Shown in pieces: positions 25,519-32,000 of a stretch of 32,000 nt of DNA. This DNA comes from Acaryochloris marina S15 (GTDB taxonomy: Bacteria; Cyanobacteriota; Cyanobacteriia; Thermosynechococcales; Thermosynechococcaceae): contig NZ_CP064923.1 of assembly GCF_018336915.1 (NCBI RefSeq), positions 720,001 through 752,000 on the forward strand. The letters are read 5' to 3'. The notes beneath the pieces are model-generated. The model was not told where the DNA came from. It made no database searches and was given only the letters and a program-made list of their open reading frames with translations. The position numbers were made by a program, and so were the translations under genes. The stretch's first letter is position 1, and every line of letters starts with the position of its first letter.

Positions 25519-26073
25519 ATGGCATATCGCAAGGTTTTACTCAAGCCAATCTACCTGATGCTTTTGACGGGAGTCTTTACTTTTAGGCTCTCGATGGCTA
25601 TAGCCTGTAAGCCCGTCTATAGATCTATTTACGACTGGTGCATCCATAAAAATAAATTATCAGGAACCACCCGCAATCTGATTGAGACCCTCTTGTTGAA
25701 GGCTGAGACTACTGACTGTACCCTAGCTCAGCAAAGGTTAAGTCAGATGACCTATCTCAACCTTGATGCCACCCCTCTGAGTGATCCGAATCAAGTAACT
25801 GCTGGACCCATTTCAGATTTAAGACCGTTATCAACCTTGACACAGCTCAAAGGTCTGAACCTTTATCATCAGCAATTGACAGATTTACGACCGCTGGCTT
25901 CGTTAGTGAATTTGGGTTATATCAATTTACAAGGGACAGGAATAACGAAGATAGAACTATTATCGGCTCTCAAGAATTTAAAATCTCTTGATTTGCGTGA
26001 TAACCCCATTACTGACTTTCGACCATTGGGTGATTTGCCCAAGCTGAAGCAGCTCTATCTTGGAGATCTGTAG
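25519..26073 (+). CDS. Leucine-rich-repeat protein with N-terminal hydrophobic anchor or signal
   Basis: Repeats of about 22 aa of the LxxLxxLxLxxxxIxDLxPL type: LTQLKGLNLYHQQLTDLRPLASLVNLGYINLQGTGITKIELLSALKNLKSLDLRDNPITDFRPLGDLPKLKQLYL. Confidence 0.85.
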   Translation: MAYRKVLLKPIYLMLLTGVFTFRLSMAIACKPVYRSIYDWCIHKNKLSGTTRNLIETLLLKAETTDCTLAQQRLSQMTYLNLDATPLSDPNQVTAGPISDLRPLSTLTQLKGLNLYHQQLTDLRPLASLVNLGYINLQGTGITKIELLSALKNLKSLDLRDNPITDFRPLGDLPKLKQLYLGDL

Positions 26074-26096
26074 GATTCATTAGATCAGCTAAAAAA

Positions 26097-26157
26097 TTAG
26101 GGTAAGCATCTGTGGCAAGCCTTACTTCATAAGGCTTGCCACAGATGCTTACCCTAA
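26097..26157. repeat. 28-bp perfect inverted repeat (hairpin, 5-nt loop) at the core/accessory boundary
   Basis: 26097-26124 (TTAGGGTAAGCATCTGTGGCAAGCCTTA) pairs without mismatch with 26130-26157. The loop is CTTCA. It starts 24 nt after the LRR gene stop. There is no U-tract on the plus strand. Confidence 0.9.
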
Positions 26158-26622
26158 AATTAGGTCTTGACGATGCACTAGTTTGCCTTGCTCTGTTATG
26201 CTTGCCGCTTGATGGATAAAGTCTTAGTTATGTCATTCTTGCCTGAGTTTTAATGCAGTTGGGGCTATATCATTTGTTTCAACTCAGTCAATTATGGTTC
26301 CTCCTGTAACCTATGTAGCTATTAAGCTTGACTGGCCTAAAGATAGTCGCAGATTTAGGCCTTAACTCATTCCAAGCTATAAGTAAATCCGAAATAATTT
26401 AGAGATATACCTTATGTAAATATAATTTATGCCAAGTTGGCAACATTAGATTCTTTTTCCTCTTTATAGTGATTTATGTAAACGAGCAAAAAGGGTTCTT
26501 TCTTTCCTGCTTGAAAGTCATTTAAAACTGTTGGAATGTTGTTTGTGTTGAATTAGTCATAAGGCTTTTTGATCGCAATATGAATAGTTTTAAGGTTTTG
26601 ATTGGGTTTGTGGAATAGCCTG

Positions 26623-26640
26623 TGCAAATTTATATTTGCA
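26623..26640 (+). promoter_or_regulatory. Operator-like palindrome TGCAAAT-N4-ATTTGCA upstream of the peptide gene
   Basis: 7-bp arms with a 4-bp AT spacer, 35 nt upstream of ATG 26675. It contains a -10-like TATATT. An AAGGA Shine-Dalgarno-like element lies at 26666-26670. Confidence 0.3.
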
Positions 26641-26674
26641 AACAGTAACAGCTCATTAATTACACAAGGAATAA

Positions 26675-26974
26675 ATGATGATTATCTCTGATTTAAATCA
26701 CTTAGAAGTTTTGGATTCAGGTCTAGAAGAAGTCACTGGTGGTTGGGGATACTATATTCCCGTTCCTTCTCATCTTCCTGTGAGTGGCGGTATCAACTTT
26801 AATGTTAATGTTAACGTTTCGAAAAACTTTGTGAAACTTAAGGGCAATCAAGCTACTGGTGCTTTTAATGCTAGTGCTAAAGGCTCCAATACATTAACGG
26901 ATGGATATGTTAACGTATCTACGACTTCTCATAGCTCGAATTCTTCAGGTGGTGCTATTGCACAATCAGCTTAA
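26675..26974 (+). CDS. Double-glycine-leader precursor peptide (23-aa leader plus 76-aa N/S/T/G/A-rich cationic core)
   Basis: The protein begins MMIISDLNHLEVLDSGLEEVTGG|WGYY. There is a GG at -2/-1, with hydrophobic residues at -4 (V), -7 (L) and -12 (V) and acidic residues at -5/-6. AAGGA lies upstream, a stable hairpin lies downstream, and an HlyB/PCAT-family exporter is in the same locus. Confidence 0.7.
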   Translation: MMIISDLNHLEVLDSGLEEVTGGWGYYIPVPSHLPVSGGINFNVNVNVSKNFVKLKGNQATGAFNASAKGSNTLTDGYVNVSTTSHSSNSSGGAIAQSA

Positions 26975-27022
26975 ATCAAAGTTTTTTAAAAGCTCTGATT
27001 TTTTCAGAAATCTGTGAAATGT

Positions 27023-27060
27023 GTTACTGGGAGTAAGGCTCATTCCTTACTCCCAGTAAC
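27023..27060 (+). terminator. Stable stem-loop 3' of the precursor gene (terminator/attenuator or mRNA stabiliser)
   Basis: Perfect 16-bp stem GTTACTGGGAGTAAGG (27023-27038) / CCTTACTCCCAGTAAC (27045-27060) with a 6-nt loop, 49 nt after the stop. No U-tract follows. Confidence 0.5.
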
Positions 27061-27226
27061 GCGTCTATGAGCAACTATTAATAGAAGATTTAAAAGAATC
27101 TTTTGTCCTCTTAGTTAAGAGTTCACTTTGCTTAAATATTTTGTAATAAAATATCTGAATTGGTTTTAAATTATTTAAGACTTATTATAAAAAATGTACA
27201 AAATTAGAGTCAGATAATTGCGGCAA

Positions 27227-27469
27227 ATGATCAAAAAAAATTCTAGATGCGCTAGTAGTTCTTCTGCTTTAGCTTATTCATCTACTAAGACCCAAAGTGC
27301 TTATGGTAAGTCTTCTGCTACAACTATTTCTTCTATGGGAGAAAGTGAAAGTAGCAGTACTGAAGTCTTTAGTTTGAATGCCAAAGCCATTAGTGCAAAG
27401 GCATCTTCTAAGTCAACACAGAATAATTCACCTTGTGTCAATACTCAAGTGGATATTTCATTTCCATAA
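27227..27469 (+). CDS. Possible leaderless Ser/Ala/Thr/Lys-rich small protein (80 aa from ATG 27227)
   Basis: The ORF is open from TTG 27218. Its composition (ASSSSALAYSSTKTQSAYGKSSATTISS...NAKAISAKASSKST) resembles the core of the upstream peptide (ATGAFNASAKGSNTLTDGYVNVSTTSHSS). It has no GG leader and no clear RBS. It is low-complexity and sits in AT-rich DNA. Confidence 0.3.
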   Translation: MIKKNSRCASSSSALAYSSTKTQSAYGKSSATTISSMGESESSSTEVFSLNAKAISAKASSKSTQNNSPCVNTQVDISFP

Positions 27470-27857
27470 ATTTTTTCTGAAAATTTTTCAAGAATAGATA
27501 GATTGCTAAAATGTTTGAGATCTAATCTTTGGATATAAATTGTTTTATCCTGTTATTAGTTGGATTCTGAATTAAAAAATAATCGTTGTCTAAACTATGT
27601 CGTTCATGGCGATAAAAATCTGCACGAAATTTCGCAGTAAAATATTTCTATTGAAGATGTTGTTTTTGATCATAAAATATTTAAGAAAAAATAATTTTAC
27701 CTTATTGATCCTTAAGAAGAATGTATTTTGGAAGATAGTGAGCACTAGCTTGTTAGAAAGTTTTTGTATAGTGGTCTATAGTACATATGATTTTTTAAAA
27801 CTATCTCAATGCTTTTGGAAAGATATCTTGATACTATAAAATAATGCTTTAATAGCC

Positions 27858-29192
27858 ATGCAAAGACTAAACATCAGTAAAATTAAATTCACTAATCGTG
27901 CTGACAAAATAGCTCCAAATTCTACGATTTTTAATCCCAAGAATTCTATTGTTAAAACTCTAAAGGGAAGCGATTCACTTATAGGTAATTCTTTCCTTAA
28001 TGGTGATTTTGGATTCGGAGTTTTAGTTGGGGTTGGGGCGAAAAACTTTGGTTTGCTTGCGACTTCTACTGAGTTTCTAGTCAACTTTAAACTTCGTACT
28101 CAAGGAATTAATAATAAAGGTACGATTCAGACTAATAAAGGCAAGGATACAATCCAAGGTAACGCCTCAGCCAATTTGTCAGTTGCTACTAATTCGGTAG
28201 CAGAGGCGATAGCCGTTGCTCAATCTGTTGATACAAGCGTCATTACCCAAGTTTTGGCATCTCTTGATATTGAGGCTAATGTTATTGGTATCAATAATTC
28301 TAAGGCGACTATTCAGACTGGCCTTGGAAGTGATGCTATAGATGGTCAAACGGAGGGGAGTGTTTCTGCTACGGCAACCGCTTCAGCTAATGCATCAGCC
28401 ATTGTCGAAGCGATTGCTGGTGCCCCTATCTCTGATAAGTTAATCGCGTTTGCTAATGCTATTGCTACCAGTTTGACGACTGCTTCTATATCGGCCACTG
28501 GAATCAAAAATAGGAAAGGTTTGCTTGCAACTGGCAAAGGCAAAGATACGATTAGCGCTACTGCAAACACTCAATCTAGTACTTTTGCAGGTACGTCTAG
28601 TTCTGCTTTTTCTAGTGCACCTCCTGACAATCAAGCCTTAGCGTTGGCTGTTGCTGAGGCAGTTGCTGAAGCTTCTGATATTGCGATCGCAATCGATAAT
28701 ACAGGCGGAAAAATTACCACAGGGAATGGGGCTGATACGATTATTGCCACTGCGGAAGCGACTGGTAAAGCCTTTGGAATTATCAACACTGGTGGTGTGA
28801 TTAGTACTGGACAAGGGGCTGATCAGATTATTGTTCAGGCTACAGGGGAAGAAGCCTATGGTCTTTATGGTGGAAGAGTAAGTTTGGGTGCAGGAAAAGA
28901 TTCATTAACCGGTACCTTTGGTGGCGGTGTGGTTGTCAATGCAGGGAGAGGCAACGACTTTATTGATGGTAGTGCTGGTGATTTTGGGAACGCCACATTA
29001 AGAGGTGGAAGAGGTCAAGACACCCTTAGTCTTGCGAGTAGCCTTGCCGATTTTTCTGATATCAGTATTGGTGCAAATACTCAAGTTACATTCAATCTTG
29101 ACGGTATGACACTCGTTACTACGGGATTTGAAGAATATATTTTAGCTGGCGAAACTTATACCCTCGCTGGGCTTGCAAGCAATCTACCATAA
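27858..29192 (+). CDS. RTX-like repeat protein: nine GGxGxDxU-type motifs, the N-terminal ones isolated between Ala-rich spacers
   Basis: Motifs are TLKGSDSLI, TNKGKDTIQ, TGLGSDAID, TGKGKDTIS, TGNGADTII, TGQGADQII, LGAGKDSLT, AGRGNDFID and GGRGQDTLS. Five of them sit in an 18-aa unit I-x-N-x-x-G-x-I-x-T-G-x-G-x-D-x-I. There is no N-terminal signal peptide, and a non-repeat tail of about 55 aa follows. A HIP1 site lies at 28683-28690. Confidence 0.8.
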   Translation: MQRLNISKIKFTNRADKIAPNSTIFNPKNSIVKTLKGSDSLIGNSFLNGDFGFGVLVGVGAKNFGLLATSTEFLVNFKLRTQGINNKGTIQTNKGKDTIQGNASANLSVATNSVAEAIAVAQSVDTSVITQVLASLDIEANVIGINNSKATIQTGLGSDAIDGQTEGSVSATATASANASAIVEAIAGAPISDKLIAFANAIATSLTTASISATGIKNRKGLLATGKGKDTISATANTQSSTFAGTSSSAFSSAPPDNQALALAVAEAVAEASDIAIAIDNTGGKITTGNGADTIIATAEATGKAFGIINTGGVISTGQGADQIIVQATGEEAYGLYGGRVSLGAGKDSLTGTFGGGVVVNAGRGNDFIDGSAGDFGNATLRGGRGQDTLSLASSLADFSDISIGANTQVTFNLDGMTLVTTGFEEYILAGETYTLAGLASNLP

Positions 29193-29741: not shown

Positions 29742-30491
29742 ATGATGAATATAGACTTTCACGGGATTTCAATTGAGATAGCTGAGGTGCTAGAAACACT
29801 CAGGCAAAATATGAGTCTAGTGGAGGTCTGCGAGCAAACTCTTAAACAAAAAATCATTCTTCAAACAGCTGATTCCCAAAATATTACTGTTACACCTGAG
29901 GAAATTCAAAATGAAGTAGATGAAATTCGCCGTAATAAGCATTTGGAGAAGGCATCTGATACAATGGCCTGGCTTAACGAGCAAATGGTTACTCCAGATG
30001 AGTGGGAAATTGCAATTCAGGGTCACTTGCTTACGAAAAAGTTGGCTACATATCTATTTGAAGAGAAAGTAGAATCTTACTTTGCTGAAAGGCGACTAAA
30101 TTTTGATCGTTTTGTAATTTATCAAATTAGTGTTGACTGTCAAAAATTTGCTCAAGAATTATTTTATCAAATTGAAGAAGAAGAAATTAGTTTTTATGAA
30201 GCAGCTCATCTTTATGATCTTGATGAAAGAGCTCGCTCTCTTTGCGGTTATACAGGTGAGACAAACCGCTTAAGTTTCTCTCCAGGTATTGCTGCAGCTA
30301 TTTTTCAAGATCCTTTACCAATAGGAGTTTTGCTAGGGCCAATTCAAACAGAAGAAGTGCATCATCTGGTAAGGATTGAAAAATATATACCTGCAGATTT
30401 AACACCCATTGTAAGGCAAGAAATTCTCGATAGCTTATTTGAAGAGTGGATTAGTAAAGAATTAAATTATATTATTAATATGCAACAATAA
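29742..30491 (+). CDS. SurA-N/parvulin-like (PpiC-type) protein, no signal peptide, probably catalytically degenerate
   Basis: The N-terminal chaperone-like region is QKIILQTADSQNITVTPEEIQNEVDEIRRNK. The C-terminal region follows the parvulin layout: FVIYQISV...AQELFYQIEEEEISFYEAAHLYDLD...GYTGE...FSPGIAAAIF...GPIQTEEVHHLVRIEK. The position of the usual first His (xSHIL) reads IYQIS. Confidence 0.65.
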   Translation: MMNIDFHGISIEIAEVLETLRQNMSLVEVCEQTLKQKIILQTADSQNITVTPEEIQNEVDEIRRNKHLEKASDTMAWLNEQMVTPDEWEIAIQGHLLTKKLATYLFEEKVESYFAERRLNFDRFVIYQISVDCQKFAQELFYQIEEEEISFYEAAHLYDLDERARSLCGYTGETNRLSFSPGIAAAIFQDPLPIGVLLGPIQTEEVHHLVRIEKYIPADLTPIVRQEILDSLFEEWISKELNYIINMQQ

Positions 30492-30538: not shown

Positions 30539-32000
30539 TTATAATTCTAATTGTTGCTGAGCTAAGTAGAAATAAAGTCCTTGTTGTTGAATTAACTCTT
30601 CATGAGTGCCTTTCTCAACGAGAATCCCTTTATCTAGAACAATGATACAGTCAGCGTTGCGTACTGTTGAAAGTCGATGGGCAATAATAAAAGTTGTCCG
30701 TTCTCGTGCTAAACGCTTTAAATTTTCTTGAAATCTTCGTTCTGATTCAGTGTCAAGAGAGCTGGTTGCCTCATCGAAGATTAGTATAGGTGGCTTCTCA
30801 AGTAAAGCTCTGGCAATTGCAATTCTTTGTCTTTGTCCCCCCGAAAGATTAGTACCCCATTCACCTACTTTGGTACTATATCCGAGAGGAAAAGCCTGAA
30901 TAAAAGCATGCGCTTCTGCAAGCTTAGCAGTGTCAATAGCTTGCTCTAGACTAAATTTGGGCTGGTGGAGTGTAATATTTTCTAGGATTGTTCCCGAGAA
31001 TAAAAAACACTCTTGTGGTACTACTCCTAGTTGGGAGCGGAGCGATTTAAGTGATAAATGGTTGAGATCGTGTCCATCAATCCAAATTTGACCACTGGTC
31101 GGTTGGTATAGACCTTGAAGTAATTTGACTAAAGTACTTTTTCCTGAGCCACTACGTCCAACTATTGCCAAAGTTTGTCCTTTCTTGACTTCAAAAGAGA
31201 TGTTTTGAAGAGCATTCCTCTCTTCTTCTGATTCGTAACGAAAACTGATATTATCAAATCGAATATTTCCTTCTATGTTTGGTAGAGCTGTAGAAGATTT
31301 TTGTGATTTCTCCTCAGGTTGGTAATCAAAGATATCATTTAACTTTTCGACGGAAATTAAAACTTCTTGCAATTCATCCCATAGCCCTACAAGTGTAATG
31401 AAAGGACTAATAACATGGCCTTTCATCATGCTAAAAGCAACATATTGACCTATGGTTAGTTGATCTTGGATGACTAAAGTAGCCCCGTACCAAAGTAAAG
31501 CTGTTCCACCAATCGTATTAATTAAGCCACTGAGCACTCCTAAGTGAATGGCAAGTTTTTGGCCTTTGAATTGTATATTGAGCTGATGGGTTAATTTATC
31601 TTCCCAACGCCAGCGGAATTCTTGTTCTACAGCGACAGATTTAACTGTGGATATACCCGATAGCATTTCGACTAACGTAGAGTTCTCATCTGCTGTAGCA
31701 TTAAACTCTTCACGAGAAATCTTACGAAGTAAAGGTGTTGAAACCAAGGTGAGAACTACAATAGGAGGGATAATGGCTAATACTAAAACTGTGAGCTGCC
31801 AGTTGTAGTAAAGCATCAAACATAGATAGATAATTCCAGTCACTAAATCTAGCCAAGATAGCAATACCTGCCCGATTAGGAATTGTTGAATCTTTTCATT
31901 TTCCTGAACCCGCGTAATGATGTCGCCTACTCTGCGCGATTCAAAAAATTTAATCGGTAAATTGAGAGTATGCCTAATCAAGCCGCTAATCAATGTTAGA
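30539..32000 (-). CDS. HlyB/PCAT-family type I secretion ABC exporter (TMD+NBD), 5' end outside the window
   Basis: IKFFESRRVGDIITRVQENEKIQQFLIGQ is colinear with the HlyB TMD motif as I recall it (YFESRRVGD...). Walker A is GRSGSGKST, the signature is LSGGQRQRIAIARAL, Walker B is ILIFDEATSSLD and the H-loop is IIAHRLSTV. The frame stays open to the window edge. Confidence 0.93.
   Translation of the reverse strand, partial: LTLISGLIRHTLNLPIKFFESRRVGDIITRVQENEKIQQFLIGQVLLSWLDLVTGIIYLCLMLYYNWQLTVLVLAIIPPIVVLTLVSTPLLRKISREEFNATADENSTLVEMLSGISTVKSVAVEQEFRWRWEDKLTHQLNIQFKGQKLAIHLGVLSGLINTIGGTALLWYGATLVIQDQLTIGQYVAFSMMKGHVISPFITLVGLWDELQEVLISVEKLNDIFDYQPEEKSQKSSTALPNIEGNIRFDNISFRYESEEERNALQNISFEVKKGQTLAIVGRSGSGKSTLVKLLQGLYQPTSGQIWIDGHDLNHLSLKSLRSQLGVVPQECFLFSGTILENITLHQPKFSLEQAIDTAKLAEAHAFIQAFPLGYSTKVGEWGTNLSGGQRQRIAIARALLEKPPILIFDEATSSLDTESERRFQENLKRLARERTTFIIAHRLSTVRNADCIIVLDKGILVEKGTHEELIQQQGLYFYLAQQQLEL

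Follow-up and report, generated by a model that had tools for sequence, protein, structure and literature searches.

A predicted variable-width beta-solenoid with RTX-like loops, encoded beside a C39-ABC/double-glycine-leader cluster in Acaryochloris marina

The window analysed here is a stretch of 32,000 nucleotides from Acaryochloris marina S15 (assembly GCF_018336915.1, contig NZ_CP064923.1, positions 720,001 to 752,000 of the forward strand). An open reading frame (ORF) at 27858..29192 (+ strand; all coordinates are those of the window) encodes a 444-aa protein of an unnamed cyanobacterial family. The protein is predicted to form a single continuous solenoid, in which wide coils taper into an RTX-like roll. 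We give about an even chance to the reading that it is a type-I-secreted, calcium-folded scaffold of the cell surface or matrix, built as a continuous beta-solenoid of variable width. The model thus describes a putative RTX-type solenoid with giant alanine-zipper coils, which belongs to an unannotated family and is encoded with a recognisable but incompletely understood secretion cluster.

Overall structure of the 444-aa protein

AlphaFold2, supplied with a 91-sequence alignment, models the full-length protein with a predicted local distance difference test score (pLDDT) of 92.2 and a predicted template-modelling score (pTM) of 0.88. Residues 1-310 modelled alone yield the same strands with a pLDDT of 93, and two of the five models of this N-terminal fragment are weaker (pLDDT 75-82). 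The wide part of the model consists of paired long strands of ~22 residues each, and the members of a pair are connected via arcs of 3-12 residues. In each repeat, the IxN motif closes the second long strand and is followed by a 2-4-residue xG kink, a 3-residue strand, the TGxGxD loop and the next long strand. An earlier interpretation of this DNA, made without database searches (the sequence-only reading), had asked whether its isolated beta-roll-like units stack into one solenoid that condenses toward the C-terminus into an RTX-like roll, and both AlphaFold2 and Foldseek predict this arrangement. The Ala-rich spacers between the units are modelled neither as helices nor as inserted loops: the ~22-residue strands that build the coils are made of them, and every such strand has a conserved Gly/Ala/Ser face.

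The N-terminal cap (residues 1-23; 27858..27926, +) is modelled as short strands and a one-turn helix at a pLDDT of 86-94. Hydropathy and the lack of a conserved GG in the alignment indicate that this segment is neither a signal peptide nor a double-glycine (GG) leader. Wide coil 0 (residues 24-83; 27927..28106, +) contains a degenerate unit, IFNPKNSIVKTLKGSDSLIG, and strands 40-62 and 66-86; it is rich in Gly and Phe and diverges from coils 1-3. Wide coil 1 (residues 84-144; 28107..28289, +) comprises the unit INNKGTIQTNKGKDTIQG and strands 98-121 and 126-146, and wide coil 2 (residues 145-215; 28290..28502, +) comprises the unit INNSKATIQTGLGSDAIDG and strands 160-183 and 196-217, which are joined at the far edge by a 12-residue loop (184-195). 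Wide coil 3 (residues 216-278; 28503..28691, +) is built from the unit IKNRKGLLATGKGKDTISA and strands 231-253 and 259-280. The coils then narrow to 29, 26, 19 and 21 residues in a roll that AlphaFold2 and Foldseek both present as RTX-like (residues 279-392; 28692..29033, +), and this region holds the sole strict nonapeptide of the protein together with the stretch that best resembles the HemolysinCabind domain. A folded cap completes the model (residues 393-444 and the stop codon; 29034..29192, +), with strands within 401-434 and a helix at 436-441. For residues 300-440, most pLDDT values are 87-97 and a single block falls to 76. The spacers are the best conserved and most confident parts of the protein, with a pLDDT of 94-98 in many blocks.

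The long strands of coils 1-3 have two distinct faces. One face is conserved (majority fraction 0.67-0.90) and consists of 53-79% Gly/Ala/Ser, whereas the opposite face is variable (0.52-0.62) and carries bulkier residues. The two-residue periodicity of conservation over ~22-residue stretches suggests beta-strands with one buried face, and the presence of a Gly/Ala/Ser face on every long strand fits a tight, alanine-lined two-layer core. The short xIx strand continues in the direction of the returning long strand, with only the xG kink between them, which would place the outgoing and returning strands in opposite sheets. The weak Foldseek matches of the N-terminal part are mostly parallel beta-solenoids, which fits parallel stacking. 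Loop geometry, periodicity and the type of Foldseek match together therefore argue for two stacked parallel sheets rather than in-plane hairpins.

Against the PDB, Foldseek returns no match at E ≤ 0.001 for the model. The last ~150 residues match block V of the CyaA RTX domain (5cvw, 9p0c, 9p6c) with a target-normalised template-modelling score (TMt) of 0.5-0.6 and a probability of ~1.0, at E values of only 3e-3 to 1e-1. No PDB analogue of the first 310 residues was detected (best query-normalised score, TMq, 0.12; probability ≤ 0.02). The weak N-terminal matches include pectate lyases, tailspikes, SufD, FapC and the antifreeze protein MpAFP; the FapC structure 9u4u (E 0.23, probability 0.01, TM 0.06-0.10) and the MpAFP structure 3p4g (E 0.73, TM 0.12) are insignificant.

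Motif content and repeat modules

The protein has a mass of 44.4 kDa and a pI of 4.77, and contains no Cys, Trp or His. Nine GxD-type loops are present, with Asp residues at 39, 97, 159, 230, 293, 322, 348, 367 and 388, separated by 58, 62, 71, 63, 29, 26, 19 and 21 residues. Eight of the nine Asp positions and six of the eight spacings given in the sequence-only reading are retained; position 347 of that list is a Lys, the true Asp is 348, and the spacings of 25 and 20 residues become 26 and 19. Seven loops have the relaxed form GxGxDxU, compared with 0.15 expected and a maximum of two in 2000 composition-preserving shuffles. They are spaced 19-71 residues apart and approach tandem spacing only at residues ~338-392. 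The strict nonapeptide GGxGxDxUx occurs once, as GGRGQDTLS at residue 383.

RTX-like units that follow the pattern (G)IxNxGxIxTGxGxDxIxG are located at residues 84-101, 145-163, 216-234, 279-297 and 308-326, and a sixth, degenerate unit lies at residues 24-43. All of the isolated units quoted earlier are found in the protein; their length is 18-19 aa and not uniformly 18. The three (V/A)EA(I/V)A motifs are found at residues 115, 183 and 266, as had been claimed, but the third is not positionally equivalent to the others in the predicted strands. The motifs at 115 and 183 both lie at the end of strand A of their coils, whereas that at 266 lies in strand B, which suggests that its likeness to the others comes from alternating Ala and not from homology.

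When sub-alignments of the family are compared profile to profile, modules 84-144, 145-215 and 216-278 match one another over 45-58 columns at 94-97% probability, and module 24-83 resembles the other wide modules weakly. The DNA copies are similar in stretches of 15-40 nt only, mostly at 63-79% identity. This combination of homologous modules and short, diverged DNA matches supports the proposal of an ancient triplication of a module of about 65 aa and rules out a recent repeat expansion.

Conservation and wider superfamily

A database search retrieved homologues in 92 clusters at 90% identity, all annotated as 'hypothetical' and most of ~440 aa. Every host name given is cyanobacterial (Acaryochloris, Nostoc, Calothrix, Scytonema, Rivularia, Mastigocoleus, Okeania and others). 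Besides Acaryochloris, the named carriers span many kinds of filamentous cyanobacteria and show no obvious preference for cold habitats. A Pfam domain is on record for only one of the clusters (P0088, PF00353). In a species-dereplicated genome set, the family occupies 49 loci, among which the nearest homologue is that of A. marina MBIC11017 (87% identity).

Across 25 diverse homologues, the loop residues D39, D97, D159, D230, D322, D348, D367 and D388 are invariant, as are the Asn residues N86, N147, N218 and N281. In coil 0, N26, T34, D39 and G43 are invariant. Throughout the family, TGxGxD keeps its Gly and Asp, and IxNxG its Asn, with few or no exceptions. The motif periodicity, whose loss in homologues had been named as an argument against the repeat architecture, is kept: the unit pattern and the lengths of the four wide modules are preserved in the alignments of 25 and 91 sequences. 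Spacer length is likewise kept across homologues of ~50% identity, and the Ala positions of the spacers are invariant. Variation is observed in the number of 29-residue coils, which differs between homologues, and at the far-edge loop 184-195, which is deleted in homologue P0084. The C-terminal tail ...(Y/F)xx(D/E)(L/F)xx is present across the inspected sequences.

Profile libraries recognise the protein poorly. NCBIfam yields no match at E ≤ 1 for it or for its small neighbours, and Pfam yields only HemolysinCabind (PF00353), which the sequence-only reading had suggested as a check; the best stretch (residues 360-375) scores 17.5 bits at E 0.0041 and thus misses the curated cut-off of 23 bits. 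Neither library detects an enzymatic or pore-forming domain. The family profile retrieves no PDB chain even at E ≤ 10.

In a profile search that covered 1.84 billion representative proteins, 556 matched at E ≤ 0.001; of these, 267 reached E ≤ 1e-10 and 30 reached E ≤ 1e-30. Most of the distant matches listed share only profile positions ~276-440, that is, the narrow roll and the cap, and some (for example P0107-P0110 and P0114) also carry Ala-rich arms. No Pfam domain scores above threshold in ten distant relatives, and no NCBIfam match was found in two. Within the family, GxD spacings have a bimodal distribution (13-32 and 51-75 residues), whereas those of the distant relatives run continuously from 9 to 75 residues. 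This suggests that the 444-aa family lies at the wide end of a group of solenoids that differ in width and carry no annotation.

Gene neighbourhood across the family

Neighbours were counted within 10 kb of the family gene at the 49 species loci. A small GG-leader protein is encoded at 19 loci, nearly always upstream on the same strand, and a PpiC-like protein is also found at 19. The exporter, which had been expected as a conserved partner, is indeed one, with C39-ABC genes at 14 loci and HlyD genes at 16, and it is of the C39-peptidase type. At least one of these four components is present at 23 of the 49 loci, typically in one gene string with the family gene; among the 32 loci with 8 kb or more of upstream sequence, the count is 19. 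The usual order is ABC, HlyD, peptidyl-prolyl isomerase, GG protein(s) and the 444-aa family gene. This neighbourhood makes the 444-aa protein a putative functional member of the C39-ABC/GG-leader cluster.

A second association involves sugar transfer. A glycosyltransferase combining TPR and family 2 (GT2) domains lies within 10 kb at 15 of the 49 loci; it is directly adjacent in ~12 and is sometimes accompanied by nucleotide-sugar genes. This context suggests that the family protein is glycosylated. One or two family copies lie beside the TPR-GT2 gene and a nucleotide-sugar modification set at loci L003/L009, L008, L016, L051 and L053. The set comprises an NTP-transferase, a PIG-L deacetylase and a methyltransferase, and an epimerase and a dTDP-sugar isomerase are confirmed only in L003/L004. 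Tandem family paralogues occur at eight loci.

The distant relatives with the same C-terminal module lie in consistent contexts. Directly downstream of P0120, and likewise of P0144, are genes for a short ABC exporter and for an adaptor of the AprE/HlyD type. The two genes beside P0120 exceed the NCBIfam cut-offs (PrtD, 567 versus 510 bits; HlyD, 386 versus 209 bits), and the P0144 pair has the same layout, supported by Pfam only. P0103 adjoins a cNMP-C39-ABC gene and an adaptor with no small GG ORF between, and P0109 is accompanied by a rotamase, three GG-leader ORFs and TPR-GT41/GT2.

At eight loci of the Rivularia/Calothrix type (L015, L020, L022, L025, L026, L032, L037 and L039), a multi-core microviridin-type precursor is located immediately downstream of the family gene. 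These precursors contain repeated KYPSD cores and a GG-type leader that ends in EEEMD.V.GG. Most of these loci encode two MvdD-type ATP-grasp ligases, and a PEP-CTERM-like protein and M16 peptidases are found in most.

Secretion, folding and proposed role

The protein has no signal peptide, in agreement with the sequence-only reading: no N-terminal hydrophobic segment is present, and hydropathy reaches a maximum of 1.31 over the first 50 residues. An acidic, Cys-free protein without a signal peptide is typical of type I secretion substrates, and the 444-aa protein is most likely such a substrate. Putative type I export, which had been proposed earlier, gains support from the distant relatives encoded in canonical type I operons. 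The tail of about 55 aa in which a secretion signal had been suspected is not a mere tail in the model; its last ~50 residues are predicted to fold as a cap like that of CyaA block V, and residues 393-444 probably constitute an uncleaved type I secretion signal.

The following mechanism is proposed. The protein would remain unfolded in the low-calcium cytoplasm and would be exported by a type I secretion system with its C-terminus leading. Outside the cell, calcium would fold the cap and the narrow roll first, and the capped roll would template the stacking of ever wider coils from C to N. Such C-to-N templated folding from a capped block V has been demonstrated for the RTX blocks of CyaA (PMC9120197, PMC10511787, PMC8486122). 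Each wide coil would consist of one RTX-like unit of 18-19 residues and two strands of ~22 residues that run out and back. The Gly/Ala/Ser faces of these strands may pack together as a silk-type alanine zipper, so that four to five coils would make up a thin 'paddle' of two layers. Stacked TGxGxD loops, as probable Ca2+ half-sites, would form a column along one of its edges, and short arcs would form the other. The coils would then shrink through 29, 26, 19 and 21 residues to a roll of ordinary width and the CyaA block V-like cap.

The folded protein may serve as a cell-surface or matrix scaffold alongside the co-encoded GG-leader proteins of ~100 aa, and it could be glycosylated by the flanking TPR-glycosyltransferases. 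The linkage to small GG-motif proteins and to protein-type glycosyltransferases fits such a role. In Synechococcus elongatus, small GG-motif proteins are exported by the C39-ABC protein PteB and build the biofilm matrix (PMC4997328, PMC9981879). EbfG1-3, which belong to these GG-motif proteins, form amyloids in that matrix according to PMC9981879 as relayed by PMC12267927.

Several observations weigh against this scaffold reading. No exporter-cluster gene lies within 10 kb of the family gene at 26 of the 49 loci. C39-peptidase exporters normally handle GG-leader cargo, and the C39 peptidase of the adjoining exporter is intact, whereas the 444-aa protein has no GG leader; no GG, GA or GS site is conserved in residues 1-40 in the alignments of 25 and 91 homologues. 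Calcium binding is putative, and of the two canonical RTX loops each wide coil retains only one. The two-layer topology is deduced from the lines of evidence described above, and Ala-rich repeat proteins are a class in which AlphaFold can be over-confident. The outward-facing positions are poorly conserved, and they present no binding surface that points to a specific function. The literature returned nothing under the locus tags of named homologues, and a link between RTX proteins and TPR-glycosyltransferases in cyanobacteria was sought there with no relevant result.

Alternative interpretations

We consider it improbable that the protein is an ordinary RTX toxin, adhesin or S-layer-like protein with degenerate repeats, in which the spacers are structurally insignificant linkers. 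Such a protein would account for the sub-threshold HemolysinCabind match, the likeness of the C-terminal part to CyaA block V, the acidic Cys-free composition and the type I secretion genes nearby. However, linkers of this kind would hardly be the best conserved segments, with invariant Ala positions, a pLDDT of 94-98 in many blocks and a length kept across ~50%-identical homologues; the single strict nonapeptide, the absence of PDB RTX chains among profile matches at E ≤ 10 and the lack of a structural analogue for the N-terminal 310 aa also argue against it. The opposite objection is that the wide coils exist only in the model and that the Ala-rich segments are disordered or helical, in a protein that is perhaps intracellular. 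The fold does depend on AlphaFold2 alone, the regions concerned are Ala-rich and of low complexity, and two of the five N-terminal-fragment models have a pLDDT of 75-82. The strict two-residue periodicity of conservation over ~22-residue stretches, in contrast, is a direct sequence signal for strands, the Gly, Asn and Asp residues at the coil junctions are invariant, the three modules are mutually homologous, and the full-length and fragment predictions agree; an artefact is accordingly quite unlikely.

Two further alternatives take the cluster as their starting point. The protein could be a cargo of the C39 exporter, either bacteriocin-like or a processed precursor, that uses a non-canonical N-terminal leader and not a C-terminal signal. 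The gene sits in 'group I' bacteriocin-type clusters (PMC3140520), the exporter's catalytic motifs are intact, P0103 is the sole candidate cargo beside such an exporter, and the N-terminus LNLSxVxF faintly resembles the leaders of the neighbours. We nevertheless regard this as rather unlikely, since the first 40 residues contain no conserved GG, GA or GS site, the N-terminus is predicted to lie within the fold, no enzymatic or pore-forming domain is present, and relatives with the same C-terminal module are paired with peptidase-free exporters (PrtD-type for P0120, with a like layout for P0144). The protein could also act as a template or anchor for amyloid-like fibres of the small GG-leader proteins, comparable to CsgB and CsgA, with the open edges of the wide coils seeding strands. 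The tight linkage to GG-leader proteins of ~100 aa (19 of 49 loci, and also P0109) and the amyloids that the comparable EbfG1-3 are reported to form (PMC9981879, via PMC12267927) are in line with this proposal. In the model, wide coil 3 overhangs the narrower coils and may expose its strand edges, and a 16-bp hairpin after the small gene is compatible with a high expression ratio of small protein to scaffold. The small proteins, however, show no detectable homology to the 444-aa family (hhalign probability < 1%), the FapC match is insignificant (E 0.23, probability 0.01) and many loci have no small genes, so that we hold templating to be unlikely. Binding of ice, minerals or polysaccharides through large flat sheets, as in beta-solenoid antifreeze proteins, would suit the predicted Thr/Ser/Asn-rich sheets and the appearance of the Ca-dependent MpAFP (3p4g) among the weak Foldseek matches. 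It is very unlikely, because the solvent-facing positions are variable and lack regular outward TxT ladders, the 3p4g match is insignificant (E 0.7, TM 0.12) and the hosts show no obvious cold-habitat bias.

Gene order within the window

The genes in the window are ordered as a leucine-rich-repeat (LRR) protein, a 99-aa GG-leader ORF, a Ser-rich 83-aa ORF, the 444-aa gene, a PpiC/SurA-like gene and a convergent ABC exporter. The LRR protein (25519..26073, +; LRR_4, E 1e-21) has 184 aa and a hydrophobic N-terminus. Shortly downstream of its stop codon at 26073 lies an inverted repeat of 28 bp (26097-26157), perfect and with a 5-nt loop; terminators of this length are unusual, and it may represent a repeat element. 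In strain 'Moss Beach', a DDE transposase is inserted beside the LRR gene and the spacing from the small ORFs to the 444-aa gene differs, which points to local rearrangement in the island.

The 99-aa protein (26675..26974, +; ORF call) has the double-glycine leader MMIISDLNHLEVLDSGLEEVTGG and a Ser/Asn/Ala-rich, Cys-free core, and matches neither Pfam nor NCBIfam. It is possibly an EbfG-like secreted matrix protein. Its homologues (leader MIISDLNYLE...GG) occur as four identical tandem copies in L049. The small GG-leader proteins (s100, c110) were also considered as homologues of a 444-aa coil, and this was rejected at an hhalign probability below 1%. A perfect 16-bp inverted repeat, GTTACTGGGAGTAAGG / CCTTACTCCCAGTAAC, with a 6-nt loop (27023-27060) begins 49 nt past the stop of the GG-leader gene and could be a terminator or attenuator between this gene and the 444-aa gene. 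As it has no T-run, this hairpin was missed in the consensus terminator scan, and the matches of the promoter and terminator scan are not above the shuffled expectation. The intergenic region 26074-27857 is AT-rich (32.6% GC, compared with 45.6% for the window). Within it, the Ser-rich ORF of 83 aa (80 aa according to gene callers; 27218..27469, +) is of uncertain gene status; an ORF of this kind without a GG leader is found in the matching position in two further Acaryochloris genomes (L002, L005).

Downstream of the 444-aa gene, the PpiC/SurA-like protein (29742..30491, +) matches Pfam Rotamase (22.3 bits, cut-off 21.7) and SurA_N_3, and scores 61 bits against the TIGR04500 'peptide maturation' rotamase, below the cut-off of 180 bits. 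The ABC exporter (30539..32000, -), identified with Pfam and NCBIfam, runs past the end of the window. Its Acaryochloris orthologues (compared at L005 12674-15826 and L002 12920-18475) are of the 'long' type, with 1010-1050 aa (1050 aa in A. marina); they begin with a cNMP-binding domain, to which C39 peptidase, ABC membrane and ATPase domains are fused. The C39 motifs Q..DCG.ACL and H(F/Y)IVV are intact. In strain 'Moss Beach', the exporter is followed by a HetP-family gene and then by HlyD, and the genes of A. marina MBIC11017 follow the same order, with a 139-aa ORF that lacks annotation in place of HetP. A hetC-hetP-like arrangement is thus seen in a non-heterocystous cyanobacterium.

Implications

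The analysis delimits a family that lacks annotation and, around it, a superfamily that shares its units and its C-terminal module. It ties the family to C39-ABC/HlyD/PpiC/GG-leader clusters, which have until now been treated solely as loci of the 'bacteriocin' or biofilm (EbfG/PteB) kind, and to TPR-glycosyltransferases; these links suggest that the family supplies a missing large component of those systems. If the scaffold reading is true, the RTX beta-roll principle would stretch from turns of 18 residues to coils of ~60-70 residues with one calcium edge kept and a core built as an alanine zipper, and the tapered solenoid would have a geometry with no solved counterpart (TM ≤ 0.12 over 310 residues). 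Such a geometry would be relevant to the design of beta-solenoids, to calcium-switchable scaffolds and to templated folding in type I secretion. A more far-reaching version, which we consider unlikely, is that the protein represents an undescribed fold class, a 'wide beta-roll' with ~60-residue coils, an alanine-zipper core, a single-edge RTX-type calcium column and vectorial folding during type I export. It would then also be a surface-anchored template for matrix fibres of the EbfG-like GG proteins, possibly once the flanking TPR-glycosyltransferases have acted, and the pair would be a cyanobacterial counterpart of the curli nucleator and subunit on an RTX chassis.

Comparison with known systems

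The cluster resembles two described cyanobacterial systems, the 'group I' bacteriocin-type clusters of Wang et al. 2011 (PMC3140520) and the biofilm-related locus ebfG-pteB in Synechococcus elongatus (PMC4997328). Both contain a long C39-ABC exporter, HlyD, a SurA/PpiC-like protein and small GG-leader proteins. Both have been described via their small precursors, and an RTX-like solenoid partner of ~440 aa is absent from the descriptions.

The closest structural relatives are the RTX beta-rolls, in particular CyaA block V (PDB 5cvw, 5cxl, 9p0c), with which the protein shares GxGxD turns followed by xUx strands and stacked loops with invariant Asp. Like RTX proteins, it is acidic and Cys-free, lacks a signal peptide and has relatives encoded in type I operons. 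Its predicted roll and cap superpose on block V (TMt 0.5-0.6), and C-to-N templated folding as in CyaA is plausible (PMC9120197, PMC10511787). There are also differences. RTX turns comprise 18 residues, whereas the 444-aa protein has four to five predicted coils of 58-71 residues; each of these retains one of the two Ca-type loops, the second half-unit being IxNxG, and Ala, Gly and Ser take the place of Leu, Ile and Phe along the core. RTX proteins are defined by tandem GGxGxDxUx nonapeptides, two per 18-residue turn, and the protein, with one strict copy, a Pfam score below the cut-off and no PDB RTX chain retrieved by its profile, does not fit this definition. When the class is defined by an RTX beta-roll fold with a C-terminal cap, the AlphaFold2 model and its Foldseek match to CyaA block V place the protein within it. 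The protein would act like an RTX beta-roll protein yet fails the curated RTX tests of Pfam score and tandem nonapeptides.

Flat 'silk-like' beta-solenoids, such as the antifreeze protein of Rhagium inquisitor, the model of the inchworm Thr/Ala-rich antifreeze protein and the designed (GAGAGAGQ)n beta-rolls (PMC5388506 in part), offer a second comparison. They share with the prediction two flat parallel sheets with Ala, Gly and Ser facing inward and a thin body with wide faces, although Foldseek detected no significant match of the model to a silk-like solenoid. They are small and calcium-independent, with strands of ~6-13 residues and outer Thr ladders, whereas the predicted strands of the 444-aa protein have ~22 residues, its outer faces are variable and a column of RTX-type loops would run along one edge. 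The curli proteins CsgA and CsgB and the Pseudomonas proteins FapC and FapB also form extracellular two-sheet solenoids of strand-arc-strand coils and have linked small secreted partners. They show no sequence similarity or significant structural similarity to the 444-aa protein and follow a different secretion route, and the 444-aa protein is predicted, in contrast, to be a monomer with a cap, in which the coils narrow to an RTX-like roll.

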